In this document: piece after piece, positions 15,405 to 55,283 of the stretch | Layout of the letters: each line of letters starts with the position of its first letter | Position numbering within the stretch: the first letter of the stretch is position 1 | From: Prorocentrum cordatum | Taxonomy: Eukaryota | Reading direction: 5' to 3' | DNA length: 64,000 bases | NCBI GenBank assembly: GCA_963575745.1 | Contig: CAUYUJ010000001.1 | Location: forward strand, 1,488,001-1,552,000 | Program-made: the position numbers and the translations under genes | Notes under the pieces: model-generated | What the model saw: only the letters and a program-made list of their open reading frames with translations | Database searches by the model: none | What the model was told of the DNA's origin: nothing

Positions 15405-15504
15405 NNNNNNNNNNNNNNNNNNNNNNNNNNNNNNNNNNNNNNNNNNNNNNNNNNNNNNNNNNNNNNNNNNNNNNNNNNNNNNNNNNNNNNNNNNNNNNNN
15501 NNNN
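15405..15504. other. Assembly gap (100 N)
   Basis: Run of N. Confidence 1.
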
Positions 15505-15550: not shown

Positions 15551-15572
15551 TCCGTAGCCATTTTGGCTCAAG
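15551..15572 (+). other. Genomic copy of the dinoflagellate spliced leader (DinoSL)
   Basis: TCCGTAGCCATTTTGGCTCAAG, 22/22 match to DCCGTAGCCATTTTGGCTCAAG. Confidence 0.97.
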
Positions 15573-30985: not shown

Positions 30986-31839
30986 CGGACTTCTTGTCTC
31001 TGCCACGACGTGGATGCCCTCGAGGTCCAGGACCCTCAGCGCACGGGCTGCTCCGACCACTGCCGCCAGTGGCGGTCCCTGACTCCGTGTGCCACCCGAG
31101 GTGCTCCGCGGTTCGTCCCTTCCTGTGGATCGACTCAGGCCGGGGATGCTTGCGTCGCCTGGATGCCCAGACATCCGATTCGGTCTTCCAATCCGTGGCC
31201 CTGGAGCTGCGACCCCTTTCCATGGGAGCTGTGCGGCGTCCAGGGTCACTGTCTGATGGCCCCGAGGTCCCACAGCAGGCCCCAGAGACCGAAACCGATG
31301 GAGCACGCGCAGCTTGGAAACATGAAAACAGTCGGACCGACGTAGAAGACCGAGGTCGGTTCCTGGAGGGTACCCTCATGTTCTTGGTGTTGGTTGGATA
31401 GTCTTGTGCATCCCGGGGAGGGTACCAGGGTACCCTTGGATGTTCTGATTGTTCTGGCCCGCGGAGGGTCTCATGTTCTTGAAGGATGTTCTCCTGGCCA
31501 AGGTCCGGCCGCATTGTCGGACATCTGGGTGGGCCTCACTTCTCAAGCCCGAGCCAACCCATGGCTCGTCGGCCTCCTGCTGGGACCACCTCTCGGCGGC
31601 CAGCGAGGGGTGGAAGTGAGAAGGCGAGAACCTTCTCAAAAGGCGGCGGGACTTCCCAGAAGCCCTCGTGCCTTCTGAGAAGTTTTGTCTATCTTCGGGG
31701 AAGGCGTAGAGAACTCTTCAGACGGCCTGGGGACTTCCGAACCTTCTCAGAAGGCCTTCTCCCTCCCACTCCCCCCCAACGATAGCAGCGATCACAAAGA
31801 CAACGAAAACAACGATAGAATCGATCACAGCGTTGCTAT

Positions 31840-32682
31840 CGTTAAACTTTTACTTCTGAAGGATAATTATTGTTGATCCCCCCCACCGGTGCATACTGGG
31901 TTTTCTCAATCAAGGTCTGCCCCTCGACGCTCGCAAATTGTTTCTTATCAGGGGAAGTTTTGAGGCTCAAACTGGGCCCCTGGCAAACCGGGTTACAACA
32001 ACAACGGCTCCCGCCTGAGACTTCCTCCAAATTTACTCAGGACCCCCGCTCCTGAGACTTCCTCACAATTTACTCAGGATCGGTGCTCCCGCCTGTGACT
32101 CCCTCGCAGTTTAGTCAGGACCCGCGCTCCCATCTGAGACTTCCTCACAATTTGCTCAGGGACGGCGCTCCCGCTTGAGACTTCCTCGCAATTGAATCAA
32201 GATATCCTCGCAATGTAATCAAGACCCCCGTTCCCGCCAGAGAACCCTTCACATTTGTTTCAGGAATTGCGCTCTCGCCTGTAACTTCCATGCTAATTAT
32301 GCAGAGCTCGCGCTTTCGACGCTCAGGAAACACGCTGCGCCAAGGACGCCGATACAATTTACTTAGTAATCGCGCTCTCGCCATACTAAGGCATCCCGCT
32401 TGAATGTCCCACCCGCCCGACCCGACCGCTTGAATTGCGCCCAGGCTCCCGCCCCAGACTTCTTTCAGGAACGGTGCTTTCGCCTAGGACTTCCTCGAAC
32501 GTTCACGCTCTTACCTTCCTGCTCCTCCTCCCTCTCCCTCCTCCCTCCTCCCTCCTCTCCTCCCTTCTCTCTCCCTCCTCTCTTCCCTCATCCTTATGCC
32601 TCTCTGCCCTGTGCCCTCTCCCTCCTCTCCCTCCTCCCTTCTCCCTCCCCTCTCCTGCCTCCTCCCTCTTTCTTTCTTTCTT

Positions 32683-32720
<38 letters not shown>

Positions 32721-32770
32721 CTCTCTCTCTCTCTCTCTTTGTCTCACCTCTCTTACCTGTTCTTGTTGTT

Positions 32771-32829
<59 letters not shown>

Positions 32830-34400
32830 GCCTCTAATCAACCGCCCCCAGGTTCGCTCCTCTCTCCTGGCGTTTTCCCTCTTCCTTCGTCCCTCCCCCT
32901 CCCTTCCTCCCACTCTCCCTCGTTCTCCCCCTCCTCTTTCTGCAGAGCCCACACCAATTCCAATGGTGGGCACATGTACGCCCACGAAGGATTGTCCGCC
33001 CGTTCAGGTTTGCCCGCCTGTCTAAGCCCGCCGCCCCCCGCAAAGAGAAAGAATTCCCCCAAAGGGGGTGTGGTCGAAAACGAACAGGGCGGGTATCGAG
33101 GGTGTGGCGAGCTCGTTTTGAATGACACGCGGGCAAGTAAGAGCGAACAGTCTTAGAATGATTGTTGAACTTTCATTTCTGACCAACGATTATTGTTGAT
33201 CCCCCCACCGGTGCGTATTGTTTTTCTCAATCAAAGTTTGCCCTTCGACGCTCGCACCCTGTTGTTGATCAGGGAACGTCTTGAGGCTCAAACTGGCCCC
33301 CTGGCCCCGGGTTACAACAACAACGGCTCCCCCCTGAAATCTCCTCGCAATTTAGCCAGGACCCCCGCGCCCGAGACGTCCTCGCATTTTATTCAGGAAT
33401 CGCGCTCTCGCTAGGGACTTCCATACAGTTTATGCAGGAATCGCTTTTCCGGCGCTCTGGAGTCGACCTCTCGCTGGAGATTTGCTTGCAAGCTATTGAA
33501 GAATAACGCCCTTGCGTGGGAATTTCCTTCAATTTACGGAAGCGCCGCGCTCCCGACACCCAGGCACCCAGGAGTCTCGCTCACGCTTAGGACACCCTCG
33601 CAGATGACCTAGGAATCGGGATCGCTGCCCTTCGTGGTGCCGTTGCAGCCCTTCGTGGCCCCCATCGCTTTGTTTCGTGGCCCCGTTGCAGCCCTTCGTG
33701 GCCCCCTCGCTGCCCTTGGTGGCCCCGTTGCAGCCCCTCGTGGCCTCCTCGCTGCCCTTCGTGGCTCCGTTGCAGCCCTTCGTGGCCCCCTCTTTCGTGG
33801 CCCCGTTGCAGCCCTTCGTGGCCCCCTCGCTGCCCTTCGTGGCCCCGTTGCAGCCCTTCGTGGCCCCCTCGCTGCCCTTCGTGGCTCCCTCGCTGCCCTT
33901 CGTGGCCCCATTGCATCCCTTCGTGGCCCCCTCGCTGCCCTTCGTGGCCCCATATATGTATGCCCTTCGTGGCCCCCGCTCGCTCGCGCCCGTGGTGGCC
34001 CAATATATGCATGCCTCGCCCTTCATGGCCCCCTCGCTGCCTTTCGTGGCCCCGTTGCTGCCCTCAGTGGTCCCGTCCTTGCCCTCCGCGGCCCACTATA
34101 CGTAATTATGCCCTTCGTGCCCCCGCTCGTTCGCGCCCGTTGTGGCCCCATGTGCATGCCCTTCGTGGCCCCGCTGTCGCCGTTTGTGGCCCCCTCATTG
34201 TCCTACGTGGCCCAGTTGCTACCCTCAGTGGCCCCATCGTTGCCTTCTGTGGCCCCGCATTATCTGCCCTTTGTGGCCCCCGCTCGTTCGCGCTTTTCGT
34301 GGCCCCGTACGCATTCCCTTCGTGTCCCCGCTGTCGCCCTTCGTGGCCTACTTCGTGTCCTTGTGGCCTTGCTGTCGTTCTCCCTCGCTCTCGCTTCCGC

Positions 34401-34453
<53 letters not shown>

Positions 34454-34587
34454 GTCGTCGCCGTCGTCGTCGCCGTCGTCGTCGTCGTCGTCGTGGCCGC
34501 GGCCGCCCCGCAGATCAGCGCTGCCGCTGGCCAGGCCGACGGTCCGCGGCCGCTCCGCCGCTTGCCGGGGCCCGGCCTGCAGGGAAG
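31840..34587. repeat. Host ~1-1.5 kb tandem repeat family, left part; includes a (GCCCTTCGTGGCCCC...) ~21-bp minisatellite at 33626-33950
   Basis: TATTGTTG.TCCCCCC.CCGGTGC landmark at ~31868 and 33191, and again at 58876 and 60087. Confidence 0.85.
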
Positions 34588-34690
34588 ATGCCAAGTGTTT
34601 ATCACGATATTGTTAGTTGGAGTCTTCGGGGGATGGCCGCCTTGGGGTCGCGGGGTCTCGTCTCTCTCCGTGACCTTGTTGGCTCAAGCG
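34588..34690 (+). repeat. Split direct repeat A1 (103 bp)
   Basis: Colinear with 58435-58537 (TTCGGGGGATGGCCGCCTTGGGGTCGCGGGG...). Confidence 0.93.
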
Positions 34691-34705: not shown

Positions 34706-35060
34706 GTGAACCGTGTGACCGACTGGTTTGGAGCGGGCGCTGTCTCATACCGCAGCCGCTGCCCGGCAGCTCCGTCGTGTCCAGAGTGCCCGCCATATTC
34801 CTGCCAGTTCATGTGCCCCACGGTGCCGAGCTGCCCTGCGAGCCCCCGTTCGCCAGGACCGACCACGATAATCTGCCCTGAGCCTACGCCCTGCCCCGTG
34901 ACCGAGTCGCCTGTTGAGCCAGCTGCCCTGGCGTTCAAGTGGTTTTGGGACTACGTGGTCGGCGCCGTTGTCTTTGTCACGACCTGCGGCGGCTTCATCG
35001 CGATCGGGTCCTTCGGCGTGACGTGCTTCGCGACCAAATGCCGCCATGGCATCATGGGTC
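34706..35060 (+). CDS. Possible small Cys/Pro-rich membrane protein upstream of gag
   Basis: CPAAPSCPECPPYSCQFMCPTVPSCP... followed by hydrophobic WFWDYVVGAVVFVTTCGGFIAIGSFGV. Ends uncertain; no clear ATG. Confidence 0.4.
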
Positions 35061-36044
35061 GTGCGGCTCTGGGCGTGGATCCTGCACAGCGGGGTCCACG
35101 TGTGGCAGCAGCGACGGGTCTTGGGCCACTCGCAGCCGGCCAGAGCGACACCACTCAATCATTACCTGGTCGTGTGCGCGACCCCAGACTCCGACGTGTA
35201 CTTCGAACCGCTGGACGGGACTTCGGCGGTGGCGCAGCGGGTGACCGTGGAGTCGACCAGCTTCGCCCCCCGGGGCACACCAGTCATCATGGCGGCGGCG
35301 GACATCGTGCGGGGGAGCGTCGGCATCCTTACCACTCCCCTCGGCGTCTCGGTCTTGGTACGGGACCTTCAGGCGCACCCGGTCGAGGAGTATAAGACGA
35401 TGGAGAGCCGCCACGACCGCAGGCTCAACAGGGCGACGTCCGTCGCCAGCAAGGGTCGAGCTCGTGGACGATTCGCCCCCTCGACCGTGGAGCTCCTGCA
35501 GTCGCCTTTTCCCGATTGGCATGTGCCAGGGTCCAGGACGGTGATGTGGTGCTGTGAGTGGCTTTTCAGGCGTCAAGGGGGCCCACTCGAGCACCACTGG
35601 TTTCTGATAGTGACGTTCGGTCTGCGGGCCGCCGACTGGGGCGTCGACGTCCACCACACAACGACGAGATGCCTGGACGAGGGCTTCGGCTATGACATGA
35701 TCGACATCAGCAACAGTGGTTTCTTCGAGCTGCTCCTCCGCAGGGCGCAGCTGGTGGAGCACGTGCACCACGTGGACTTCTTGGCCACGCGCGGACCGTG
35801 TGCCAAGGGCAAGGGCATGGCCGGCGGCTTGGCGCCCCTCCAGCCTGCGTCCTTCGACGAGTCGGCCATCTTCTCGGGCGTGGCGAAGAGCTCAGACATG
35901 GCCATGGTCGGCCCCGAACTGATCGCCCATGTGGCCTCGGAGTTCGACTGCAACGCCGCCGTCCTCGCGCAGGTCCGCGCGGCCCGCGAGGAGAGGGCGG
36001 AGCTGGCCAAGCCTGTCAAGAAGGGCAATCAGGATCCGGGGTGA
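35046..36044 (+). CDS. gag-like ORF of the YR retrotransposon
   Basis: 332-aa ORF directly before pol, with non-repetitive protein-like sequence (SRTVMW..GGPLEHHW..YDMIDISN..ELLLRRAQLVE). Function inferred from position. Confidence 0.65.
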   Translation: MASWVVRLWAWILHSGVHVWQQRRVLGHSQPARATPLNHYLVVCATPDSDVYFEPLDGTSAVAQRVTVESTSFAPRGTPVIMAAADIVRGSVGILTTPLGVSVLVRDLQAHPVEEYKTMESRHDRRLNRATSVASKGRARGRFAPSTVELLQSPFPDWHVPGSRTVMWCCEWLFRRQGGPLEHHWFLIVTFGLRAADWGVDVHHTTTRCLDEGFGYDMIDISNSGFFELLLRRAQLVEHVHHVDFLATRGPCAKGKGMAGGLAPLQPASFDESAIFSGVAKSSDMAMVGPELIAHVASEFDCNAAVLAQVRAAREERAELAKPVKKGNQDPG

Positions 36045-37113
36045 TGCACGCCCCTCCGGGGCTGGAGAGACCGCCCACCCCGGCACGGGCGCGTTCAGGG
36101 AGGGCCTCCTGGCCTGGCGTCCGGGAGCCAGCCCGCTCACAGCCACCCTTTTTGGGCCGACGAGCGGCAGCGAAACCTGTTGCCTCTTCCTCGTCCCCTT
36201 CCAGTTTTGGACCGAGGCTTTTGCGGAGCTGCCGCGCATCTTGGCAGGTCTAGTCGTCGCCGGCTTCAGCGCACCAATCACGTCGATTTGGTGTGCGATG
36301 AGATTGCCGGCGCGCTGGATGACGCGCATCTCGGCTCACGTTGCCCACGGTCGAACAGTGGCCCTTCGGCGAGCCAGCAGGCCAGTCTCAACCTGATACG
36401 CCAGTCCGTCTTGGCCACGGGCCCGCCGCCGGACGACATGAGTGGCCCAGGGGCCCTTCGAGCGCTCCGGGCGGAGAGTGCTTGCGGCGAGGGCGCCGTG
36501 ATCGCCCCCCTCGGCATGGGCGCCGCCCACCTGATCGACCTGCCGGCTGCTGGGTCGACTTCGCGATCACTCGAGCACCTGGCGGGAGAACGGGGGAGCG
36601 AGATTGCTGAGCGCTTAATTCATTTGCGCTTGCCTGGATCCGCTGGCAGGGAGAATGCCAGACTTCGTGGGCCCGCTTGACCTTACTTACTCTGACCTCT
36701 GACCTCGCCCTCAAACGGTCGCCGGCCCTGTGCGCGGAGTTGCTGCGACGGATGGCCGACTCCGACCTCTTCGAGTGGCGCTTGACGGGCGAGGTTTCGC
36801 GCGGGCTGTTCTTTGTATATAAGGAGTCAGGTGACCTTCGTTTGATAGTTGATTGGCGACTTCCATCATGCCACTTTGGCGACAGCGACCCTGTGTCGCA
36901 GGCCTCGGGGGCCGCATTTTCCACCATCGAGGTTGACAGCGCTACGCCAGTCCAGATCGGCTCGGTCGATATCGCAAACGCCTTCTATAACGCGCAGTTG
37001 CCAGAAGCCTCCGAGAGATGTTCGCCCTTCCTCGAGTCCGAGCCGACCCGGCGAACGCATCGTCGGCCCAAGGTCGGGCCATCAGACGGAGCCAATGCCT
37101 CTATCCAGTCCTG
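36044..37113 (+). pseudogene. pol 5' part (RT N-half), with stops and frameshifts, cut by the DNA transposon
   Basis: GLFFVYKESGDLRLIVD and VDIANAFY; after a shift near 37008 it reads LREMFALP...CLYPVL. Confidence 0.88.
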
Positions 37114-37137
37114 CTTGGATGGCCGCGGCGGTTGCTA
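37114..37137 (+). repeat. Left terminal inverted repeat
   Basis: CTTGGATGGCCGCGGCGGTTGCTA. Confidence 0.95.
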
Positions 37138-37362
37138 AGTACTTAACATACTTACTACGCTAAGTTAAGTACTTAGTAAGTAGTTAGCGGACTTAGCTAA
37201 GTACTTACTCAGTCATTACTAAGTGGCCCACTTAGTAATGACTTAGTAAGTACTTAGCTATCCACTTATAACCAGTTAGCTAAGTGCTTAGCGCACTTAG
37301 CTAACCACTTATAACCGCTTATAGCTAGTTTGCTAAGTAGGTTATAAGTGACTTAGCGGTTA
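37134..37362. repeat. Left subterminal repeat region (ACTTAG/CTAAGT motifs)
   Basis: Dense direct and inverted CTAAGT/ACTTAG; AT-rich relative to the flanks. Confidence 0.85.
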
Positions 37363-38016
37363 CATTGCACTTGTTATCCAAGGGCCATGCGCAGGGAAAA
37401 AAGGTAAATCCACGTCTTGAAAGAGCTGAGTTTGTTCGTTGAGCGCTGCAGCGCTGCAAATTTTGCATTTTGATTTGGAGTCGGTGTCCTGGATTTTTGC
37501 TCTAAATATGAGAAGCGCTGCAGCGCTGCCTTCGGATTTATATGAACATGGAGCGCTGCGTGCGCTGAATATGAAGCGCTGCAGCGCTGAAGGTTGAGTT
37601 AAATGCATGTTTTCTAGTTGCGCGTTGTTCGGATCTTCATTTTCGCCCAGCTCCGTTTGCATGGAATTTGAATGCACATGTCAATTATGTTTTGTTGTAT
37701 TCGTTGTTTTTTCAATGGTCGCATTGAGCGCTGCAGCGCTCCAAATTTGATAGCACGTATGTTACTTTGCGCTGCAGCGCAAAAAAATGGTTGTCGTCGT
37801 GATGTCGCATCGCGCTGCAGCGCGTGCGCGCTCGTGCTTCATGGGCCTCGGGCTGCAGCCCAGATCAACATTTTTGCTCGCAAGTTGCATGTCCATGCAA
37901 GTCGATGTTCACGCGCACGCCGCGCGACAGCTTGTCTCAAGCTGCGGCCGCGCGCCGCATCCGCCGTCGCGCCCGCGGGCTCGCACGTTGCATTCGGCGC
38001 TATATATAGCGCTGGC

Positions 38017-40893
38017 ATGGCGCTGCAGGCGCGTCAGGAGGAGCAGATCTTGCAGTACACCGAGGAAAGCAATTCCTCGGGGAGGTTGGCATCGGGGTGG
38101 GATCAACTGAAGGAGTTCCTGCTGGCGGAGGGGCTAGCGCATTACCAGCAGGCCCCACCGAACCAGATGGGCATCGACATTCGGAACCGCAGCGGTTCGT
38201 TAGTGAACCCTGCGCGGGCTCACAATTTAGGCGCGAAGATTTGCGCCCAGGGCTTCGTCTTGGCCAAGACGGCTGCAGCCGCTGCCTTCGAGGCCCCGCA
38301 GGGGGCGCAGTTGGAAGAGACCGCGATGGCGAACGACCGCCTTTCGCGGCTCAGCGGGGGTCGGTGCCCCCCGCTGGACTCATTGCGGTATACGTCAGTG
38401 GGCGGCTCCCACACGAACGTCTTCCTCCGCTGCGTGCTGGCCAAGGCGCCGACCACAGTGAAGGCGCTGGCAGACTCTCGGGACAACATCGACTCCGAAA
38501 AGCTGTGCGCGTTGCATCCGCAACTTGCGACGGCAGTCAAAAAGGGCCTGACGTGGTTGATCATCAAGCACGCGGTGGCCAAAGTGAAGGGCCTCAAGAA
38601 CTTCGTGCAGAGGGCTTTGAACGCCGACGTCAGGGAGGCGGTTCACGAGACCGAGATCATTCGGTCAGGCTGCAGCCTATCCCCACTATAGTATATAGCG
38701 GTATGCAGTAAGGACCAGGATGATGCACGAGGAGGGTGATGAGTGGGAGCGAGTTGGGGAGGAGGTGAGAACGAGGAGCAGGAGCATTATATCTTACCGT
38801 GCTGCAGCACTTGATCGGATCGGCGCTTGCTGCAGGCAGGTGGGCGGATGCTCTTGGCACACAGCCTCGCTGAGGGTTCCAGCAAGCCCGATTGGCGCGA
38901 CATCGCCGAGCAAGCGGGCCACGCGAACCCACCTTGCAAGGCGTGGATCGCTGACTTGTGCAAGTTTGTTGAGCTCGGGCCACAAAACGGAGAACTTCTC
39001 CGTGAAATAGATGAAGCCCTCAAGACCTTCACGAATGTGGACGTCTCGGGGCAAACTTTGATGTGCGGCTCTGAATTCTGGCGCAAGTTGAATTCGATTA
39101 AATGGGGGAAGCACCAGGAGTCGTACCCGTATGTCGTAGCGGCGCTCGTGAAGGCCAACTATTCAGGCGAGCACGTGGTGGATAGCATGTGCAGGACCAT
39201 CCATAAGCTTGTCGGCGCCCCCTTGTAGTGACATGCGCTGCAGCGCATCTATGCATTGCGCTGCATTGTTAGAACTGCGTACCCACCCCTCCCCCCTCCC
39301 CACACACACACACGCACCGTTACATTGCTTTATTCCCAAACGCAATCGCTGAAGCGATGGGCGGATCAAGGCAAACGAGATCGTCCACGTCGCGTCCCGC
39401 AAGGCGGACGTGGCTGCGGCCGACAACCTCATGGCCGACGCAAGGTCGCTCGTGAAGAGGTTGGATATCGGAGCGGAGCAGGGCTTCTTGCACATCACAA
39501 AGTTGGATGTCCGCTGTGCCATGTACCTGGTGAAGAAGCGAGCGCCAGGAGACCGCGCTTTCGGATGCGTAGCAGATATAGCACAGGTATCTTCTCACGC
39601 CACCTTTCGTGTGCTCCTTGCTTCCCTCCCTCCCTGCTTTTCGCCATTCAATGTCGCTGCAGCGACCCTCCAGGGAGGTCTTCCTCCATGTGCTCGGGGA
39701 GCCAGCCCAGCTGCAGATGAAGAGCTTGGGGATCGAGTTCGGCAAGGCGGTGCAGACCGACAAGCAAGGCGATGGCGCACCCGAGTTCCCAGCGAGCGCC
39801 GATGCAGACGCGCCGCGCGCGGCAGCGTCGTCGGCCGCTGAGTTGAAGAGCAACGTCTTCCGCATGCGGCGTGCAGGGTTCGACGTGGGGGAGCACATCG
39901 TCCAGAAGAAGGAGGTGGATGACGTCTTCGAGGTGCTCTCCGTCTCGGAGGATGGGATCACCGCTCAGAAGAAGTTGCACGGCGACCTGGCGGGCGAAGA
40001 GATCTCCATTGCGCGGCTGCAGCCACCCCGCCGCCCGCGGGGAGCAGGGAGGGGGGAGGGGGAGGTAGTAACTGCGATATTGTATTTCCTGTACTTAGGT
40101 TGCAATGGGTTGGTCGATGCGCTGCAGCGCACGGAGCAGTTAGCCGAGCGGGCGGATTGAAGTAAACATATTGCTCGAGAATTACAAGTTGACGTCCAGG
40201 GTGCAGGAGCAGTTGCCGTTCACGAAGGAGCACTTGCCGCCAGCCCACGAGGGTTGGGCGATGGGCGCGTTCAAGGGGGCATGCAACATGGCGCTGCGGC
40301 CCCAAGCGCTGAAGTACCAGGCGAACATTTTGCATGCGCTGCAAGCGAGCGTTCAAAGTGGGTGAGCTCGTCAGACTTGTGCTTCCGCAATCGTCCGCGC
40401 CCCCCTCCGACGACGCCGCGCTGCAGCGCTGCGCGGAGGACGAGGTAGCGAGGATTTCGGGGCACGTCAGGCCGTGGCGACGAGGTCAGTGATGTTACCG
40501 ACTGCGCGCCATGTAGCTCCACGCGGTGGGAGTGGTCGCATTTCAGCCTCGTCCACGCGGGTCAGCACGGGCTGCGTTGCGGAGAGCATCTCGTTGGGGA
40601 AGGTTGGCCTCTACGAGTTCTTCGTGGGCCCGCAGTTCGCAGGGCCCCCCGCTGAGGGGTCGCGGGGCCCCGACGCCTTTGTCAGCCCCTTCTGGGTGGT
40701 GGCAAAGTCCGACTCAGAGCCCAACATGGAGCTCCGAAAGGAGACCGTGACGTTCGGGACAGGCGTCAACAAGGTGCAGGTGGGGGTGCCCCAGATGCAT
40801 AACACTTGCGCCCTGTCCGCGGGCGACTTCCTGGTGGTGAAGCCGTGGCCGCGGCTGCAGCCGCGGCCAGCCAAGAAGCTCAGGACGGCCTGA
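38017..40893 (+). CDS. Multi-exon cargo gene A: N-terminal ParB/Srx-like domain, C-terminal degenerate SET-like segment
   Basis: MGIDIRNRSG..VNPARAHNLGAKICAQGF...SVGGSHTNVFLR; C-terminus PFWVV..SEPNM...VPQMHNTCALSAGDFLV. Predicted exons ~38017-38658, 38848-39198, 39365-39586, 39678-40007, 40156-~40357, ~40445-40893. Confidence 0.6.
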
Positions 40894-41387
40894 GCTGGCG
40901 ATATAGAGGGACCACGCGGGAGGATGAGGCAGGAGGGAGGGGTGATGCGGAGGAGGAGGAGGAGGCAGGGTAAGGTTTGGCATAGGGAGGAGGATGAGGG
41001 GGCTTAAGGAGCGGCGAGCGCACATGACGGCACCGAGCGTGGCCCTCCGATTGGTGTAAACAGTGTGCGGGTTGGTGCGAAGTGCGATACTTGCCGCGGC
41101 GCTGCAGCGCGCGGAACGATTCGTTGCGCCAGCATCGTCGCTGCAGCGACTGTACAATATTGGTGCTGACATCAGCCTTTCCCACAGACATGCCGCTGCA
41201 GCGGCTTCGTCATCACTGTTGTGCTCGATGTGATCGTTGCTCTTCGCTTCATCTTTCACATGCGCTGCAGCGCACCTCATCATGAGCACCTCGTCCGCGC
41301 GCATGTTGCCTCATCACTCCATCGCAGCAATTTTGGCGCTGAAGTGCGACCGCGCTCGGGCTGCAGCCTCGGCGCGCCGCGCGCGCG

Positions 41388-42152
41388 ATGGCGACGATCA
41401 AGCGCGACTGCGTCGTGTTGCACGACAACCGTACGGGGCGCGAGCTGGTCACGGCCGTCGAGGTCATCGGAGACCGCGAGTGCATCACCGTGACCACCGC
41501 AGGTTGGAGCAAGTGGGTGTGCGGCAAGGCTCAGGGCTTGCGAGGCACGATGTTCCTAACGTGGCTGAAAAATCAGCGCGCCGCGTCGTCGGGGCCAACG
41601 GCGCCGACGACGCTCTTCGCTGCAGCGGAGCCAGGCCGCCGCCCGACCACGCGGTCCGGCCGCGCCAGTCGCCAGGTTCCAGTGGACAAGTGCTTCAAGA
41701 CAGTGCAGCTGCCGCCGTTTGGCGATACGGAGGCAACAGAGCTGCAGATTGTCATTCCCCCACCTCATAGGGGGGGGGGGGACAAGCTGCAGGTGGTGCT
41801 GCACGAGAAGGGCGTAGAGTACATCAAGGCCAAATTGCTTCAGGAGGCGGCGGAGGCGGCAGAGGCGAGCACGGTGCTGAAGCGCCCGCGGCGCCACGAG
41901 ACCGACGTTCCTTGCGGCACCCGCATCTATTGGGTGCAGCGGCTCCAAGCTTGGCGGGCCGTCCGCACAGACTGCGGTTGCAGCAGGACGGCCTTGTTCC
42001 GCACAAACCGCGGCTGCAGCAAGGATGACGCTGAAGCGGCCGCGGCGAAGTGGTGCACCGCCGAACTCAAGGATTGCGAAGCGGATGAGCTCCAGGAGAT
42101 GGAAGCGGAGGCGGAGGGCGATGCGGAGGAGGAGGAGGCCGACTCGGACTGA
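41388..42152 (+). CDS. Cargo gene B, 254 aa, C-terminal AP2-like DNA-binding domain and acidic tail
   Basis: Intact ORF; RIYWVQRLQAWRAV...RTALFRT...KDDAEAAAAKW fits the AP2 beta-beta-beta-helix pattern; LKRPRR basic patch. Confidence 0.6.
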   Translation: MATIKRDCVVLHDNRTGRELVTAVEVIGDRECITVTTAGWSKWVCGKAQGLRGTMFLTWLKNQRAASSGPTAPTTLFAAAEPGRRPTTRSGRASRQVPVDKCFKTVQLPPFGDTEATELQIVIPPPHRGGGDKLQVVLHEKGVEYIKAKLLQEAAEAAEASTVLKRPRRHETDVPCGTRIYWVQRLQAWRAVRTDCGCSRTALFRTNRGCSKDDAEAAAAKWCTAELKDCEADELQEMEAEAEGDAEEEEADSD

Positions 42153-42662
42153 GCTGCGGCGCGCTCGGTCGACCGCATCGCTGGGGCGTGCGATCACGGT
42201 CGGCAGTGCGATTGAGAATGGCAGCGAGGAGGACGAGCACGAGGACGAGGGCGAGGAGGAGAAGGAAGAGGAGGATTGGGATAATAATTGCGGATTGTTG
42301 GTGGATCCCCCCAATGTTCGCTACTGTTGGTGTCATTGCGAATCGTTGGTATGATCAAGCGTGCTGCAGCACGACGACACTACGATCAAGTGTGCCTCTC
42401 ACGCGTTGCCGCCGTCGATGTGTGACCTCACGGCGCTGCAGCGCTGACTTACGTTTCGTGTGTTTGGAGTCCATCGTGCTGCAGCGCTGATTTACGTTCG
42501 GGTGTCTGGCGTGCCGATATCAGATTTTTGCGTCGCGCTGCAGCGCTGACTTACATGTTGTGTGTCTGGCGTGTTGATGTAGCGCTTCGATCGCGCTTGC
42601 AGCCCGCATGTTCGCTTGATGTTATTGCATGTGGTTCGCAGCCACCTGTGATCAGAACATCA

Positions 42663-43016
42663 ATGGCTGCCAACATGAGTGCAGCGACGCCGCCATGGCG
42701 GCTTCCCTCGGAGCCAGCGCCGCCGCCGAAGGCGAAGTCCGCGGCATCGGATGCGACATATGCGGCTACCCCCCCTCCTCCGCCGCCGCCGCCGCCACCG
42801 CCGCCTCCGACGTCGACGAGGACCGCGGCTGCAGCCGCCAGTGATGTGCCAGCCCCGCGCGCGGCTGCAGCCGCGCGCAAGCGCGATGCTGAGACCAAGG
42901 TTGGCATGTGGAAGCTTGTGTGCGACATGATTCGGGAAGCGCTTCAGCGCGGGGGCCGCGAGGCAGCGGTTGCGCTGGCAGTCCAGTGCCACGTCGCGAA
43001 GAAGCCGCGGAAGTGA
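42663..43016 (+). CDS. Cargo gene C, small Pro-rich hypothetical protein
   Basis: ATG 42663; C-terminal helical segment KVGMWKLVCDMIREAL...KKPRK. Confidence 0.45.
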   Translation: MAANMSAATPPWRLPSEPAPPPKAKSAASDATYAATPPPPPPPPPPPPPTSTRTAAAAASDVPAPRAAAAARKRDAETKVGMWKLVCDMIREALQRGGREAAVALAVQCHVAKKPRK

Positions 43017-44089
43017 CGGGCGCGCGGCGCGCGCGCGGTCAGTGCTGCAGCGCCACTGTTTCAGTCGGAGACAGCATCGCGACGGCGGCGACGGCGACAG
43101 AGACAACGACGACGGCGTTAAAGACGACGTAATTCAGAGCAGTGCATGCAGGAGAAGAAGGTGGAGGGAGGATGATGATGAGGAGGAGGAGGGTGATCAG
43201 GAGGACGACGACATTGAGGACGACGTTCTGGAACGCCCTCATTTTCACAGGTTCCCACCGCTCGCTGCCAGCACCTCGGAGCAGGGGAAGGGGGAGCAGG
43301 ATGATGATGATGATGAGGAGGAGGAGGAGGAGGAGAAGGAGGCCGAGGACGAGGAGTATGACGAGGAGGAGGAGGAGGAAGACAACCAGTTGGCACCCAT
43401 GCCCCGCCCCCCCGATCCTTCTGCCTATTCCTGCCTCCGCATACTCCCTCTCCTCCTCCTCCTCCTCCTCCTCCTCCTCCTCCTCATCCTCCCTCTCATT
43501 CTCCTACTCCTCCTTCTCCTCCTCCTTCTCCTCCTCCTCCCTCTCCTTCTTCTCCTCCTCATCCGTGTCCTCCTCCTCCTCCTCCTCCTCCTCCTGCCCC
43601 CCCTCCTCCCCCCCCTCCTCCTCTCCCTCCAATCCTCCTCCCCCCCCTCATCCTCCTCCTCCTCCTATCCTGAGGGGGCAGCCCTGGGGAGGTCAATCCA
43701 GTCGTTGGCCTTCGGAGGTTCAGTTGGGGGTGATGTTACTTTGCGGGGTGATGTTACTTTGGGGGGTCAGTCGACTGGTTAGCAGGGGTCCATCGTCGTC
43801 AGCGTCGTCGCCATCGTATTCGTCGTTGGCACCGCCGCTGTTTTTGTTCCGTGCAGCTGCAGCTGCAGCTTCGCGCGCTGCAGCGTCGCGCGCCCGCGCG
43901 CCCGAGTGCAGCTTCAGCTGCAGTGATGGGACTGGTTTCCACCACCACTACCATATGTTGGAGAAGGAGGAGGAGGAGAAAGAAGAGGAGGAGGAGGACC
44001 TCTCCCTCCAACTTATGGTACTGGTGGTGGAAACCAAGCCCATCATGCAGCTTGGCGAGCTGCAGCTTCGCTCGCTGCATCGCGCAGCG

Positions 44090-44653
44090 ATGGCGTCGCA
44101 GCTCGACTACGACGAGGACGCCGGGGAGTTCGCCGTCCTGCGGCCGACGCCGCCTGCGGCGCCGCCGCCAGGGTTCGAGCCGTGGGACCCCGCGGTCGAG
44201 CTCGCTGCCGCCAAGGCGCGGCCGACGTCGCGCGCCGCCCCGTACGGCAAGGGCGGCAGCGACGGCCCACCTTGCAAGGGCAAGGGCAAGGGCAAGGACA
44301 AGGACAAGGACAACGTCGGCGGCCCACCTTGCGGCAAGGGCAAGGGCAAGGACAAGGACAAGGACGGCGGCGGCCCACCTTGCAAGGGCAAGGGCAAGGA
44401 CAAGAGCAAGGGCGGCAAGGGCAAGCTTGTCCGCGACGGGGACCAGCAGCAGCGGCGTGACGGCTGGTTCAACAGGGCGCAGCAGCTCTGCGAGCTGCTG
44501 CTGGCGGGCGAGTACGCCGACGCGGCCGCCCTCGCGGAGGAGTACTACGCTGGCCCAGCACAGGTCTGGGTCGGCGCTGGCGCCGAGGAGGCCGCCGAGG
44601 AGGCGCAGGCGCCCGAGGAGGCGCTGAGGAGGCCGCCGAGGGGCGCCTCATGA
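44090..44653 (+). CDS. Cargo gene D, hypothetical protein with GGPPCKGKGKGKDK repeats
   Basis: ATG 44090; strongly GC3-biased codons; C-terminal RRDGWFNRAQQLCELLLAGEY. Confidence 0.55.
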   Translation: MASQLDYDEDAGEFAVLRPTPPAAPPPGFEPWDPAVELAAAKARPTSRAAPYGKGGSDGPPCKGKGKGKDKDKDNVGGPPCGKGKGKDKDKDGGGPPCKGKGKDKSKGGKGKLVRDGDQQQRRDGWFNRAQQLCELLLAGEYADAAALAEEYYAGPAQVWVGAGAEEAAEEAQAPEEALRRPPRGAS

Positions 44654-45936
44654 GGAGGCCGCGGAGGAGGCCGCGGATGAGGCCGCGGAGGCGGAGGCGG
44701 AGGCGGCCGCCGAGCGCCGAGGGCGCGCCGAGCGCCGAGGGCGGAGGCGGCCGCGCCGAGCGCCGAGGGCGGAGGCGGCCGCCGAGCGCCGAGGGCGCGC
44801 CGCCGAGCGCCGAGGGCGGAGGCGGCCGCCGAGCGGCCCCTGGCGCTGCAGCGCCCGCATGCATGCGCCCGCATGCGGGCGCCACATGAGAGCTGCGGCG
44901 CGGCCGCGGAGCATTCCACTACTGGTGGGCGACGGAATGGGACGGTAACTCAGTAGAGGTAGACAGGGGGAGAGGGGGGACTATAGTAGAGGTAGACAGG
45001 GGGGAGACGTGATATACATAGGGAATGCGAGGGGGACGATGGAGACGCAGCGTGGGGGTGGAGTGAAGACACATTGGAGAGAGACGGTAGACAGGATGCC
45101 CGCTGCAGCGGGTATCCACTCTCCCGTGAGCGAGGGGGACAACGAACGCATAGTGATAGGATACATGCTGTAGCAACCCAACATGTAAGATCAATGGGAG
45201 CAATGGGGGGGTGGATTGGATCAGTTCGCGAGCATAGCTGACGCCGACGCATGCATGTGTTTAGGCCAGGTTATATTTCGTGCGCCAGATCGCGTGGTGC
45301 GCCCGCGCTGTCGCCCAGAAAGGCGCTCCGATATCCTCATCACATCTATCTGCCATCGTCGACGTTCACATCCTGATCCGCTGACATTTTTTCGCATGGA
45401 CTGATGTGCCAGGGGTCGGCCTTGGATTGGCCAGGAAAGTTTGGGGGCACTTGGGGGGGTCCTGGGGCACTTCAGATGGCAAGCCGTCTCGCATCGCATC
45501 GCCCTTCGCCACTCTCCCTGCCCCCCTTCAGCACAGTTCGTTGCGCCGCCGAGTAGCCCCCCCCCATGGCCTCCTGACAGCCTCACCAGCCCCCATCAGC
45601 CTTGTCCTCAGCAGTCTCGAGCCATCGCGACGCTGCTGCAGCAGAACCGTGAGCGTAAATCTTTGCAGTTGACAGCGGTTTCGGCATCGTCAACCTCGTC
45701 GCGACGCTGCTGCAGCAGCGCCGCGTGATGTACTTCGCGCCTCTCTTAGTTTCACTCCCACCTCGAAATCAGCAGTGTGGACAGTGTTCTGGGACTGCGT
45801 GGGTGGGCGTTGGGGTGGGCTGGAGTGCTGGATGTTGGCATCAGGATGGCTGATCTGAGGTCGAACGGGAGCTTCGGGTGAAGCGATCTGAGAGCGTCGG
45901 TGCCCCTCTGCAGAGGTGATGCTGTCTGACAGCGGC

Positions 45937-46087
45937 GTGTCTGTTCAATAGCCCCCTCTATTGAACAGCCACGCCCGTGTCTGTTCAATAGCCCCTTCTA
46001 TCGAACATGCCATGTTCAATAGCCCCCTCGATTGAACAGCCACGCCCGTGTCTGTTCAATAGCCCCCTCTATTGAACAGACACGCCC
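45937..46087. repeat. Four tandem ~40-bp hairpin repeats
   Basis: CTGTTCAATAG-CCCCCT-CTATTGAACAG at 45941 and 46052, with variants at 45981 and 46013. Confidence 0.9.
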
Positions 46088-46915
46088 CTGTCGATGTCCC
46101 AGCTGCCTTCGAGGCTCCCAGATCGCTTCGGTATTTGCTCCTGATCGCACTTCGCGCATCTCCTGAATCCGTCCCGCGCCCTCCTCGGACACCTTCCGTG
46201 TCCCTCCTGTGTCTGCCCGCCCGCCCGCTCCCGAGCTCCCGTGTATACCTATCCGTCTCCCGTGTCTCTCCCGCGTCTCTCCCGTGCCCCTTCCGTGTCT
46301 CCACCTGCCTTCCGTGCGCTCCCGCCCGTGTCCCTCCGCACCGCTCCCGCGTCCGTCCGCCCGCTCGCCCCCGAACTCCCGTGTCCCTCCCGTGTCTCTT
46401 CCGTGCCCCCCCCCCCCGTGTTTCTCCCATGTCCCTCCCACCCCTCCGTGTCTTTCGCACCGTCCCTTCCGTGTTCCTCAAATGATCATGCATCCCCCCC
46501 CCGTGTCCTGCCCGCCCGCCCGCCCGCGCTCGTGTCCTTCCCTCCCGTGTCTCCTCGCATCTCCCCCCGCCCCCCCCCCCCCCCTCCCCCCCGTGTCCCT
46601 CATTATCTCCCTCCTCTCCTTTCCATCACTCTATATCTCTCTCCCTATTGCCCACTACCATGCGTTCCATCATGGTGCGCATGCATAGCGCTGCAGCGCT
46701 TCATGTTACTTTGTGACGATGATTTCTGCTGAGCGCTGCAGCGCTCACGTGTGTTCCTTAATTGCATGCGATCGTTGCGCTGCAGCGCATCTGTACTGTT
46801 GTGGCCTCTCTTCCACCTCAGCAGCCGAGTGCTTCAGCTCTCGCAGTGTGGGAGGCCCTCCCTCGCGCTTCCCCTCGGAGCGTCCGCGCACCCCCTCGCC
46901 CTCGCGGAGGGCATC

Positions 46916-48777
46916 ATGTCTGCCGCGGCTGCGGCCACACCCATCAACCACATCCTGGATAACCTGGACAGCTGCGACGCCTTCTTCGCATCGCAGATCG
47001 GCGTCATCGCCGCCGACGCGATGGCGCAGAGCCAGTCCGCCTTGTCCATGAGCGTGCAGCTGCAGCTTCACAACTTGGGGACGATCGGGGCTGCCCAAGC
47101 AGCTACCCTGCATAATCGAATCACCGCGTCGGGCTTCGCGGACAGCCACAAGGCGCGCCTCAGCGCCGCGCTGGCCGCGCGCGTGGGCACGGCGACGCCC
47201 GCGCTCCAGATGCGCGTGCAGACGCTCGCGTCAGGGCGGCGCTATCCATCGTGCTTTGCACATCGGACCGCCGAAGTGTTATTCACATGTATGGTTTAAT
47301 TGTTTGTTCTGTACTTTATGTATGTTACCATGTTCATGTTTCAAATGTACTTATGTTATCATGCTGCAGCATGCCTGCGTCGATTCGTAGGCTGGTGGAC
47401 TTTACCATGCAGGACTGGGGTTTATTTCGCGACCCCAACCAGAGCGTCGTCGCGAAGGTGCGCGCGTTGATCAAACGTTGCGGTGCCATCGGCTTGACGG
47501 TTCCGAGCGGGAACACGCTGAAAGAGTTGGCGGCGTTGATGGCATGCGCCCATCTTCCAGACGCAAACCCTGGGCAGCTCTACGGGATCGTGACGGAGAT
47601 GAAGGTTTGGGATTCGGCGGGAACGCCTAACGCAGACGCATCGCATCGCGCTGACTGCAGCCAATGCGACGCGGCGCGTCAGCGTTAGGGTTTCCCGACG
47701 AGTCGCCCTTTACAGGGTCAGTTCTTGGCGAGCCGCAGGGGCGCGACGGGGCAAGCGGCGACAGTGACTTGGAATTTCCCAGCAGATCCTCGGCAGCTCC
47801 CTCAGCACATCTTCGACGCGGCGTGCACCGATGCGGACCCGCCGATCGATGTGACGCGCGACCTCGCCAACGTGGCATCGCATCTACGAGGCTGCTGCCA
47901 CCCCGTCATGCGCTGCAGCGCTGATTGTTCTGGATGTCTTGGGTGCTTCGGTGAGCTCGGTCCTTTAGGTCCACCTCGCATAGAGCATGATAGGTTTCAT
48001 GCTACGCGTGCGCCGCTGAAGCGGCCTGCGGGTCTCAACGCCATCAAGGCTCGCGTGCCTCTCAGGCTGACCAACAAGGGCTTGCGGGCTGCCGCCCCAC
48101 CGCATCAGCCGAGCACTGCCATTGTGCCATGGACACCATCGGGGTCACCCTCCGTGCCGCCTGCAGCGCCAATGCAACCCATGGACGCGATGGCCGTGAT
48201 GCAGCAAATGCTGGCAGCGTTTGCGCCACCGCCATCGCCGCCCAACGAGCTGCAGCTGCAGCTCTTCCCGCGCCGCTCTGCGGCGCCCACGGCGAGCCCC
48301 CCCGCGAGTCCCCCCGCGATTGGTGATTCGCCAGCTGGGCCAGCATTGCCAGCGGCGGCGCCAGATGCTGCTGCAGCAGCGCCAACGCCGCCAAACGAAG
48401 ATGCTGCTGCAGCAGCAGACGGAGACGAGGATGCTGTGCTGCAGGCGATCGAGACCTTGGCTGCGGGCAGCGCGAAAGGCGAGCTGCCTCGCAAGGGCAA
48501 GGGCAAGGGCAAGGGCAAGAAGGGCAAGGGCAAGAGCGCGATCAAGGGCAAGAGCAAGACAGGCGCTGGCAAGGGCAAGACGGCGGCCAAGGGCACGGCC
48601 AAACCGAAGGCCAAGGGCAAAGGGAAGGCCAAAGCCAAGGCCAAGGCCAAGCCCAAGGGCAAGGCGGCAGCCAAACGGGGCCAAATGGCACTCGGGTGCA
48701 GCAAATGCCGCTACCTGCCGAATGGCTGCGGCACGTGCCGCGACCCGAACTTCACTGGCCGTCGCGGCAAGCCGTGA
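46916..48777 (+). CDS. Multi-exon cargo gene E with Lys/Ala-rich tail and terminal CxxC-x6-CxxC motif
   Basis: Exons join via a plausible GC-AG intron (acceptor 47390) and a GT-AG intron (acceptor 47715: EMK|GQFL); ends KGKAKAKAKAKPK...LGCSKCRYLPNGCGTCRDPNF. Confidence 0.6.
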
Positions 48778-49517
48778 GCGCGCAACGGGCACTGTCGGCA
48801 TATGGAGGTGAGGATGAGGATTATGAGGGCGAGGAGGAGGATGGGGAGGATGATGAGGAGGATGAGCATGTGGAGGAGAAGGAATGAGGAGGATGGTGAG
48901 GATTAGTGCGAGGTTGGATGGAACGCTGGCCGGTGATATGAACGGTAGTGGCGATGGTCTTGCCTGGCGGTCGCGCGGCTCGCACGGACGACGAGGAGGA
49001 TGAAAGTCAAATATGTTGACGGGTTCTCTTGGATGTGGGCGCTGCAGCGCTGGCGCCTTTGTGTTCAACGTTTGCATCGCCATCATGATCACGATGCAGC
49101 GCTGCAGCGCTCGCTTTCCTGGATGGTGGCGTAGATATTGCGTGCTGTTGTGTTCCGATGCAGCGCTGCAGCGCCTGTCAGACTTGTGGTGCCGTTGTAG
49201 CGTTGGCGCGTTTGTGAGTGTGCAGTTGCAGCCGCGGTGTCCATGTATTGCGTGACGTGCTCGTCTTGAGTGCCAGTCGTTCCTCGTCGATACGCGCTGC
49301 AGCGCCATCATTCGTGATGTCGAGCGTTGTCTCCCGCGTGGTTGTTGCCAAGTCACGCGCTGCAGCGCTGTGATTCGCTCATGTTGCGCGTTGCCGATGG
49401 CATGCCCTCCTCCCCCTCCTCCTCCTCCTCCTCACTTGGCTCGCGCGTCGCAGCCGCCATCGTTCGCTGCAGCGGGTGCTGGCAACGGACCTCCTCCGCC
49501 TCCTCACTGGGCTCGCA

Positions 49518-49948
49518 ATGGCGGCGCGCCGCTGCGACAAGCCGTTCGAAGCGCAAGCGCGCGCCGACCGTCGCGACGAGTTGCGCGAGGCCCGCGCGAG
49601 AGCGACGGCGACTGCTACAGCAGAGGTGAAGGAGGCGCGGAAGAACGCCAGGAAAGCGGAGAAGCAGGTGCAGATCCGCACCGCGGAGCTGCAGGTGGAT
49701 GAGGAGGCGGATGAGAAGGAGGACGGTGGGGTTCATGAGTGTGGCAGGCTACTCCCCCGCTGCAGCGGGGGAGAAGGACGACAGGGGGGATGATCAGGAG
49801 GAGGTGGAAGGCGATGATGTGGGAGGATGAGGAGTATGAGTAGCAGGGTCGGGGTCAGATGGACATCGCCGCTTCGGACGTGGCCAACCAGAAACTCAAC
49901 GAGGCGTTGACCTCGCTGCGGAACGCCAAGAAGATGAAGGTGACCTGA
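49518..49948 (+). CDS. Cargo gene F, two-exon small coiled-coil protein
   Basis: ...IRTAELQ|GT...AG|MDIAASDVANQKLNEALTSLRNAKKMKVT*. Confidence 0.45.
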
Positions 49949-50626
49949 GTGAGGTCGGCCTCGGCGACCGCCTGCTGAAGCATGCTGGTTCGATTGATTG
50001 GTAAAGGCTGGAGGGAACGTGGTTGAGCGTGTTGTTTGAGTTGCGCTGCAGCGCTTCTCCGTGGACCACGGTTGAAAGTTTGCGCGCGGATCATGATGTG
50101 TTAATGTGTTGCGCTGCAGCGCAGTTTCGCTTGCAGTTTCTCGTTGGATGGTGATGTGGCGGATGATGAGGGCGAGTGATATTGATGCTGTTGACGATGA
50201 AGGTGATGGTGACGGGGAGGATGAAGGGACGGGAGACGGATGATGAGGAGGATGGGTAGGTTGAGGAGGAGGATGGGGAGGATGAGGGGGCGCATGAGGC
50301 GGAGGAGGAGGAGGAGGGGGAAGAGGAGGAGGAGGAGGTATAGGAGGGGGAGGAAGAGGAGGAGGACGAGGGGGATGGCGAGCAGGATGGAGGAGGAGGA
50401 GGACGTTCGCGCTGCAGCGCGTCAGATTGTCATCATTGAACGTTAGCGGCGCTGTAGCGCCATGTGCTCCCAGACTGTTGCTTGGCAGTTAGCGCTGCAG
50501 CGCGCATTTGGTTGCTCTCCACGCGGTGCAGCCTCATTTCCATCCGTAGTCGCCGTGGCCCCTAGCGGAGGGGCCCCTCCGCGCGCGCGCAGCGACGGAG
50601 GCAAGCTTGCCTCGGGAACGCGCGCG

Positions 50627-51135
50627 ATGGCGGCAGAGGACGACCGCCCAGCGAAGCTGCGGCGGCTGTCCCGCCTTCGCGCGGAACTGCCATTCATGCA
50701 TTGTAATGCGATGGCGCAATTCCTGGCGTCCGTTAAGCGAGACGGAATCCCCGAATTGGGATCCCGACGCCAGGATATCAGAGACGCTCGGGAGCTCATG
50801 GTCGGTGAGAACACGCCGTGCGGCAAGCTCCACCAGAACATGATAGTCGGGCAGCACACGGTGGAGATCTGCAGTCCAGCAGCAATGCTGTGGTATTGCA
50901 GCGCCCTCCCCGCGATGCAGCCTCTGTGGCAGCGGGCGCTGGAGCTGCCACGCCCGTGGCACATCATCATTTACGGCGATGAAATAGGCGCTGGCAACGC
51001 GCTGGCGCACGTGCAGAACCGCAAGTCCTGGGGCATCTACTGGACGATCGCGGAATTCGGCCCGCAGGCGCTTTCGTCGGAGGACTTTCGCGATAGCGTT
51101 GCTGCAGCAACGATATATGCGGGGGGGGAGGGGGG

Positions 51136-51218
<83 letters not shown>

Positions 51219-53848: not shown

Positions 53849-53879
<31 letters not shown>

Positions 53880-55257: not shown

Positions 55258-55281
55258 TAGCAGCCGCCGCGGCCATCCAAG
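55258..55281 (-). repeat. Right terminal inverted repeat
   Basis: Reverse complement is CTTGGATGGCCGCGGCGGCTGCTA. Confidence 0.95.
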
Positions 55282-55283
55282 TG

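Follow-up and report, generated by a model that had tools for sequence, protein, structure and literature searches.

A spliced-leader-like sequence closes a split direct repeat of a DIRS-type retrotransposon in Prorocentrum cordatum

Retrotransposons that need intact RNA ends face a question of survival in hosts that trans-splice all of their nuclear mRNAs and so remove the original 5′ ends. We address this question at a locus of the dinoflagellate Prorocentrum cordatum, a 64,000-nt stretch of assembly GCA_963575745.1 (contig CAUYUJ010000001.1, positions 1,488,001 to 1,552,000, forward strand; hereafter the window, numbered from its first letter). The window holds a tyrosine-recombinase retrotransposon whose terminal repeat, A, ends in a near match to the dinoflagellate spliced leader (SL; in dinoflagellates, DinoSL). 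Our analysis suggests, but does not prove, that elements of this clade adapted their replication to trans-splicing. If true, an RNA whose 5′ end has been replaced by trans-splicing would still carry the homology that is used to regenerate the full-length element.

A leader-like block ends repeat A

Repeat A is present in two copies, and both terminate in the block under study.

34589–34690, + strand: repeat A1 (102 nt), which forms the element's left terminus (Self-BLAST, empty-site junction, contigs of sequencing run X1)
34667–34688, + strand: SL-like block in A1, 18/22 to DinoSL, with a CTCAAG end; CG, a 2-nt tail, completes repeat A
58436–58537, + strand: repeat A2 (Self-BLAST; B1/A2 junction)
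58514–58535, + strand: SL-like block in A2, 16/22 to DinoSL

Read directly, the block is TCCGTGACCTTGTTGGCTCAAG in A1 and TCCGTGACTTTGTTGGCTTAAG in A2. Compared to the 22-nt DinoSL reference taken from PMC5585692 (DCCGTAGCCATTTTGGCTCAAG), the A1 block agrees at 18/22 positions (17/21 over the 21-nt core) and the A2 block at 16/22 (15/21 over the core). The departures at positions 6, 7, 10 and 12 are common to both copies, and A2 has 2 more. Similarity between A1 and A2 stops after a common CG (34689–34690 and 58536–58537), 2 nt past the block. The 22-nt match counts and this stop had been noted in an earlier reading of the DNA from its letters (the sequence-only reading), and direct reading and Self-BLAST confirmed them.

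We explored the hypothesis that the block is a chance resemblance in a GC-rich repeat, using 200 dinucleotide-preserving shuffles of the window for the chance expectation. The shuffles contained on average 0.02 core sites of at least 17/21 per window (4/200 shuffles had one) and 1.4 sites of at least 15/21. On both strands of the actual window, only the A1 block and a perfect DinoSL at 15551–15572 reach 17/21, and because so few such sites are expected, the A1 block is not attributable to chance. The A2 block is a repeat copy of the A1 block rather than an independent event. Sites of at least 14/21 are no more frequent than chance would have it (8 in the window against 9.2 expected). However, the rarity of 17/21 sites, the exact placement at the end of a repeat and the register with the CTCAAG of related elements (see below) make a chance origin hardly credible.

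The perfect 22/22 copy (15551–15572, + strand; TCCGTAGCC...CTCAAG) directly follows a (GGA)n run and an assembly gap (15405–15504), and ACCAAACGGGG comes after it. It looks like the relict leader of a retroposed gene and shows the canonical leader to be in use in this organism.

The block at the end of A has the form of neither an SL RNA gene nor a retroposed mRNA. In an SL RNA gene, as described in PMC6616646, the leader exon is followed by a GU/GC splice donor. In A1 and A2 the block is followed by CG, with no such donor, and the AUUUUGG of the leader exon is replaced by CTTGTTGG. Homology between A1 and A2 extends upstream from the block and breaks off 2 nt past it, which is not the arrangement of a retroposed-mRNA relict. 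Among the variants listed from contigs of three DNA-like sequencing runs, none falls inside the block, which proves nothing.

The block belongs to a split-repeat element

The insertion spans 24.1 kb (34589–58732) in the order A1...B1–A2–41 nt–B2. Its remaining structural parts, and the uninterrupted site to which we compared it, are as follows.

58302–58435, + strand: repeat B1 (Self-BLAST, 81% to 58579–58732)
58538–58578, + strand: A2–B2 spacer, 41 nt, with the C-rich start CCCCCCCTT (compare CCCNCCC in related elements)
58579–58732, + strand: repeat B2, right terminus (Self-BLAST; empty-site alignment)
59672–59792, + strand: uninterrupted (empty-site) paralog, part of the following unit of the ~1-kb tandem array that flanks the element (junction 59740; three-way alignment)

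Self-BLAST aligns A1 (34588–34690) with A2 (58435–58537) at 90.3% over 103 nt and B1 with B2 at 81%. The internal B1/A2 junction, CTCACA/TGCC (58435/58436), equals the right end of the element (...CTCACA, 58732) joined to its left end (TGCC..., 34589). The flanks are consecutive parts of one array unit: 34131–34588 matches 59265–59740 (89.5%) and 58732–58839 matches 59740–59848 (88%), and the next unit, 59265–59848, is uninterrupted. In the three-way alignment the empty site reads GGGAAGA/AAGGTATACC, the left junction GGGAAGA/TGCCAAG and the right junction CTCACA/AAGATATGCC, and this precise paralog reveals no target-site duplication at the insertion.

Three DNA-like contig runs from one study were compared with the window. 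Run X1 has 0.17 of the window's words, and X2 and X3 have next to none. In X1, 13 contigs depart from the window at 34588 and run on as the empty site. From the repeats, junctions and empty site we therefore place the element at 34589–58732. Split direct repeats ordered A1...B1–A2–B2 and insertion without target duplication both characterize the DIRS order. The assignment to split-direct-repeat tyrosine-recombinase retrotransposons, made in the sequence-only reading, is supported by the repeats, the empty site and colinear open reading frames (ORFs; see below).

The ~1-kb tandem array around the element (31838–34588, 58732–60668) has internal 21-nt and GTC repeats. Because the summed X1 contig depth is ~21,000 in the first bin (34520–34607) compared to 5–40 on the element, the array is a satellite of very high copy number.

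Related elements keep the last bases of the leader

With a five-sequence RNase H alignment we retrieved 66 related loci (358 kb) from metagenome contigs. Two of these contain complete ~6.2-kb elements with repeats 99–100% identical (L007, 3157–9317; L010, 4969–11295). The related loci have the repeat layout of the window, with an A2–B2 spacer that is always 35–51 nt long. Their repeat A measures 68–72 nt and always ends in (G)CTCAAG (CTCGAG in L008) plus 1–5 nt common to A1 and A2; this distance of 1–5 nt between motif and repeat end holds in the 7 relatives that have both A1 and A2, and in the window. Blocks at the end of A were obtained from 14/66 loci, which represent 12 distinct families (L002, L003, L004, L007, L008, L010, L013/L014, L017, L019/L048, L025, L029 and L064). 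The 12 families are related, and counts across them are not independent events.

MAFFT alignment reveals few conserved columns in A, namely cAT at the terminus, cTgtT, CaG, tTTG, GGcCG.G and CTCAAG, the remainder being diverged. In the 66 loci and the window together, the element strand has 23 occurrences of the pattern GCCG[CT][GC]-N7-12-CTC[AG]AG and the opposite strand has 4. From GCCG to CTCAAG the blocks are 19–23 nt long, compared to 22 nt for the leader; their start, GCCGYGG, resembles the leader's DCCGUAG, and their end is the leader's last 6–7 nt. An AG before the terminal AG is found in 0/13 blocks; shuffling of the variable middles gives an expectation of 4.8 (P 0.0018, a generous value for related families). 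The AG-free block would thus form an AG-exclusion zone before a conserved AG, which fits a splice acceptor. The base after CTCAAG is C, T or A in the relatives and G in 0/13 blocks, so a GU/GC donor never follows.

The window's GCTCAAG is in register with that of the clade, and its GGGGTCGCGGGG aligns with the clade's GGGGCCGCGGGG. The repeat A of the window's family is ~30 nt longer than that of its relatives, and ~20 nt that contain the leader's 5′ portion have no counterpart in the clade alignment. Upstream of the 22-mer lies the putative counterpart of the conserved motif.

34633–34666, + strand: GGCCGYG-motif homolog ATGGCCGCC...GTCGCGGGG...CTCGTCTCTC, upstream of the SL-like 22-mer (MAFFT alignments; putative homology)

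Judging from these alignments, the window's family alone is near-canonical, with a near-complete leader. The 358 kb of related loci contain 8 sites of at least 15/21 (4 per strand), none at 17/21 and none at an A end. A recognizable A–B layout or motif is absent in the distant loci with duplicated ends (L024, L032, L040 and L046) and in six other close direct-repeat pairs (L011, L033, L036, L046, L057 and L065). The sequence-only reading had asked whether the leader motif recurs across DIRS families. It does so in reduced form: 12 families keep (G)CTCAAG 1–5 nt short of the A terminus, preceded by a leader-sized block free of AG, but their whole blocks are only weakly SL-like.

The extra stretch in the window's A looks like an added leader, as it would if the leader were a functionless relic. 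Under this explanation, reverse transcriptase (RT) switched templates onto an SL-bearing RNA, with CTCAAG as microhomology, in the clade's ancestor and again in the window's family. The leader sequence would ride along in the repeat, and the conserved motifs would serve recombinase or RT binding or termination. DinoSL relicts are common in dinoflagellate genomes according to PMC5585692, and the window has its own perfect one; the weak whole-block similarity of the other families and the fact that a canonical leader was never seen in A1 (66 loci; 7 elements with both copies) also fit. However, A has diverged except in a few columns, CTCAAG and GGCCGYG among them, which speaks for selection, and a relic does not predict the avoidance of AG in the blocks. 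A single capture at an RNA 5′ end would not place the block in both A1 and A2, and the conserved hexamer would have to be the leader's last six bases by coincidence, 1 in 4096 a priori. We regard a relic as distinctly unlikely.

A proposed rebuilding of the 5′ end of the element

How the end of A might function was first framed in the sequence-only reading, which proposed that the cDNA pairs with the mimic in A2 by its entire anti-SL end and that this end is then extended and retained. Both ends of the block are conserved, as priming from a completely annealed 3′ end would require: GCCGYG pairs with the complement of DCCGUAG (one G–T pair allowed) and GCTCAAG pairs fully. The mechanism leads one to expect, in new copies, a canonical leader in A1 and a mimic in A2. 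However, A1 and A2 carry one and the same block in 5/7 related elements with both copies and repeats 97–100% identical (L002, L007, L008, L010 and L017), the two blocks have 1 difference in L064 and 2 in L029, and the canonical leader is present in A1 of 0/7. In the window, the four departures of A2 recur in A1 though the repeats have since drifted to 90% identity, and no site of at least 15/21 lies at any A end in the 66 loci. Because the A1 and A2 blocks are mostly identical and never canonical, and because the window's departures are common to both, a fresh leader is not copied into A1. This contradicts the mechanism as written, unless trimming of the cDNA end before extension or an early transfer is assumed, and we consider it very improbable.

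In long terminal repeat (LTR) retroelements, the short terminal homology of the R region lets the cDNA of the RNA 5′ end continue on the second copy. The explanation that we favor, tentatively and at somewhat less than an even chance, is that the 22-mer derives from the dinoflagellate spliced leader and that A ends in a leader-derived homology of the R type through which the 5′ end is rebuilt, with the transfer inside GCTCAAG plus the tail. The end of A would be the short homology that moves the cDNA of the RNA 5′ end onto A2, where the lost 5′ part of A1 would be recopied. Trans-splicing at the terminal AG (34687–34688) would swap the encoded ...GCTCAAG for the leader's ...GCUCAAG, so that the spliced RNA would keep its match to A2 over GCTCAAG and the tail. 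The homology would resemble the leader because the RNA 5′ end would be made by SL trans-splicing at that AG. Because a canonical leader is not seen in A1, the transfer would have to fall inside this common stretch, before the remainder of the heavily modified leader is copied. The window's family would stem from a rare full read-through that planted the whole leader.

This explanation builds on the observed architecture, boundaries, SL likeness, motif conservation, AG-free block and A1/A2 block identity; from these we infer trans-splicing at the terminal AG, the strand transfer, its early timing and the origin of the near-complete leader. Two of its assumptions have precedent. The leader is reported to be heavily modified in Amphidinium, including m1A (bioRxiv 10.1101/2024.02.20.581179), and rebuilding of missing ends from an internal repeat copy is described for DIRS-type elements in PMC7192593.

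Several points weigh against our proposal. The near-complete leader in both A1 and A2 is not accounted for, and a homology of 7–12 nt is short for strand transfer. AAG is a weak context for a 3′ splice acceptor. The whole blocks of the other families fall in the top 0.3–9% of 20,000 random 30-mers by SL likeness, compared to 5e-5 for the window's A1 (a rough ranking in which end gaps are penalized), so the clade's link to the leader depends on 6–7 terminal nt plus GCCG. Relict leaders are reportedly re-spliced at an internal UAG, not at the terminal AG (PMC5585692, PMC6616646).

A further such point is the TTTG box found in the A of the 12 families at a fixed ~24 nt before GCCG, which fits a promoter with its start at the block and favors a different explanation: the element has a promoter of its own. 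Transcription would begin at the G of GCCG, ~24 nt past the box, and the block would be the first 20–23 nt of the RNA, a classical R-like segment. A would descend from, or imitate, the start and exon of an SL RNA gene and give the mRNA a leader-like 5′ end without trans-splicing, and the lack of GU/GC after CTCAAG would keep the block from acting as a donor. The tTTG and GGcCG.G columns do keep a constant spacing in the 12 families, identity of the A1 and A2 blocks in 5/7 elements is expected if the RNA 5′ end is encoded, and a block without internal AG would be shielded from trans-splicing. In addition, G follows the block in 0/13 cases, compared to the GU/GC start of SL gene introns described in PMC6616646, and TTT(T/G) is the dinoflagellate core promoter proposed in PMC5585692. 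However, the window's GCCG-type motif lies ~30 nt upstream of the SL-like 22-mer, which would put the near-canonical block inside the RNA and not at its 5′ end, and the exact CTCAAG end of the leader and the stop of A 1–5 nt later are left unexplained. We judge a promoter of this kind unlikely.

Put most broadly, our proposal is that a dinoflagellate tyrosine-recombinase clade built the host leader into its repeat end, such that a universal mRNA tag would become the element's R region after trans-splicing; in this general form it is possible but somewhat doubtful. DIRS-type priming and strand transfers are described as largely hypothetical in PMC7192593. A leader-derived block at an exact repeat boundary, with its last bases kept in a dozen families, would be a testable handle on this replication.

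Other features of the repeats

A conserved pyrimidine run with CAG and then G (for example CTGTTTACAG/G) occurs ~20 nt into A in 12 loci, where the window's family has CACG. It resembles a canonical 3′ splice site and could, from its sequence, be the real acceptor for trans-splicing.

The spacer that follows A2 has a C-rich start in every case, with CCCNCCC (L002 at 6102–6142, L004, L007, L010, L013, L017, L048 and L064; in the window CCCCCCCTT, 58538–58578). It ends in CTTGAG(C) in ~6/10 elements, which is complementary to the terminal GCTCAAG of A2 and to the leader 3′ end. As a candidate hairpin, the A2 CTCAAG and spacer CTTGAG were rejected: RNAalifold gave no consensus structure and no covariation, and the window lacks the pairing.

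The CAT start of A and the CA(T) end of B are likely the recombination core. At L064 (6612–7077) the repeats run B–A–spacer–B–A–spacer–B, with one surplus A–spacer–B unit, as would result from two repeat-to-repeat template switches. L003 (1–6085) has B–A–internal–B and then flank; B precedes A1, and A2–spacer–B2 is missing. This layout may be a tandem copy, a B1–B2 deletion or another integration product.

Comparison with known systems

The kind of element is already described (SymbioDIRS-Dnmt3; PAT-like). SymbioDIRS-Dnmt3 of Symbiodinium, as presented by de Mendoza et al. 2018 (PMC5890265), resembles the window's element in its A–coding–B–A–B order, in a Pol with RT and RNase H and in an RT too divergent for Pfam; its cytosine methyltransferase domain in Pol and its separate tyrosine recombinase ORF have putative counterparts in the window's element. 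The term "spliced leader" appears 0 times in the main text of that paper. Unlike SymbioDIRS-Dnmt3, the copy in the window is no longer intact and has an element of 18 kb nested in it.

PAT-like elements, Ngaro and VIPER share with the window the order A1...B1–A2–B2 and an internal junction that equals the joined termini (as described in PMC4157794, PMC6681497 and PMC7192593), and likewise the lack of target duplication beyond a short shared core and the proposed rebuilding of ends from the internal copy. The window's clade differs from them, on these descriptions, by its 35–51-nt A2–B2 spacer, its putative C5-type methyltransferase and the leader-like end of A. VIPER is from a host that trans-splices, yet the consulted text of PMC6681497 has 0 mentions of the leader. 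In the portions consulted of PMC5890265, PMC6681497, PMC4157794 and PMC7192593, we found no mention of a leader-like A end. Full-text searches, with most subscription journals outside their scope, found no literature linking the spliced leader with DIRS-type repeats, nor any on how retrotransposons that depend on their RNA ends persist in trans-splicing hosts.

Slamovits and Keeling are said to have reported relict DinoSL upstream of retrogenes in 2008. In the account of Song et al. 2017 (PMC5585692), such relicts are, like the block, genomic copies of the 22-nt leader and a sign of reverse-transcribed spliced RNA. In retrogene relicts the similarity between copies begins at the leader and runs downstream; at the window's block it reaches upstream and breaks off 2 nt past the block. 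Unlike the relicts, the block is duplicated with its repeat, and the relatives conserve only its ends. Counts of retrogenes based on the SL can thus include transposon repeats. Compared to the R region of LTR retroelements, the homology proposed here would come partly from a host RNA-processing tag. The "SL-like genes" of Fugacium were considered and set aside; as described in PMC6616646, they are tandem relicts, unrelated to these repeats.

Coding content

The coding parts of the element, and the insertion that interrupts them, are listed in order.

35046–36041, + strand: ORF1, protein in the gag position without family match (tblastn with L010 ORF1 to 35241–36011, 39% identity, E 6e-44)
36228–37054, + strand: N-terminal part of Pol with the first RT motifs (tblastn with P0002, L007 and L010 Pol; motifs by eye)
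37117–55278, no strand assigned: nested insertion, 18.2 kb, with 19-nt terminal inverted repeats (37117–37135 and 55260–55278, 18/19 complementary; Pol colinearity jumps from 37054 to 55278)
55278–56536, + strand: Pol, C-terminal part of RT (YVDD near 55400) and RNase H, frameshifted (tblastn; RNase H alignment, D-E-D..RWxPSExNP motif)
56905–57438, + strand: putative remnant of a tyrosine recombinase, in a reading frame that overlaps Pol (tblastn with residues 184–370 of the overlapping L007 ORF, 33% identity, E 6.6e-17)
57468–58224, + strand: C5-cytosine-methyltransferase-like domain at the Pol C-terminus (tblastn; relatives' profile to DNMT2)

L007 and L010 each encode ORF1, a 1380-aa Pol and a ~400-aa ORF that overlaps Pol in another frame. 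Their ORFs are colinear with the window: ORF1 at 35241–36053, Pol at 36228–37054, 55278–56536 and 57468–58224, and the recombinase at 56905–57438. The tblastn E values from their Pol to the window range from 1e-18 to 1e-36. P0002, an RT–RNase H–methyltransferase protein, is likewise colinear (36240–37003, 55658–56467 and 57552–58197). RT and RNase H of a DIRS-order element are thus found in the window by tblastn and by motifs read by eye. The putative tyrosine recombinase ORF lies wholly within the Pol ORF in another frame, between the RNase H and methyltransferase domains (L007 7034–8221; L010 8972–10207; window 56905–57438).

Among 143 stop-to-stop ORFs of at least 100 aa (34000–59200), Pfam identified no RT, RNase H, recombinase or methylase, an outcome that de Mendoza et al. 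caution about for DIRS elements of Symbiodinium (PMC5890265). L010 Pol exceeds the Pfam RVT_1 cut-off (30.4 against 29.6 bits), and the overlapping L007 ORF scores 24.5 bits with Phage_integrase, just below the cut-off of 27.1. The RNase H ORF matches 1723 representative clusters at E ≤ 0.001. Searches with the methyltransferase ORF match long proteins, one of which is labeled Symbiodinium necroappetens, and the motifs FxGxG, PC and ENP are visible by eye in the window ORFs. A profile of the C-terminal domain of 15 relatives matches DNMT2 (4h0n_A, E 1.8e-4; motifs I–IV, first 80 positions). Pfam DNA_methylase was found in 1/15 relatives, at E 0.36 only; Pfam assigned no family to ten relatives of the methyltransferase ORF, and phmmer with this ORF against the PDB gave no match. 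Viral contigs with the methyltransferase ORF yielded 17 pattern matches, 0 of which were confirmed. ORF1 gave no Pfam lead, and its ESM Atlas matches were at chance level (0.87).

Based on its sequence features, the window element is an old, frameshifted and interrupted copy of a DIRS-order, PAT-like retrotransposon of the SymbioDIRS-Dnmt3 type. We consider it old because A1 and A2 are only 90% alike.

The 18.2-kb nested insertion sits inside the RT gene and is foreign to the retrotransposon; it is probably a large DNA transposon. Its terminal inverted repeat is GGATGGCCGCGGCGGTTGC and its complement (18/19), and its AT-rich subterminal arrays (37159–37301, 54526–54688) consist of TTAGTAAGT-like units and palindromes. 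ORFs at 51511–53120, which have no Pfam match, resemble real protein.
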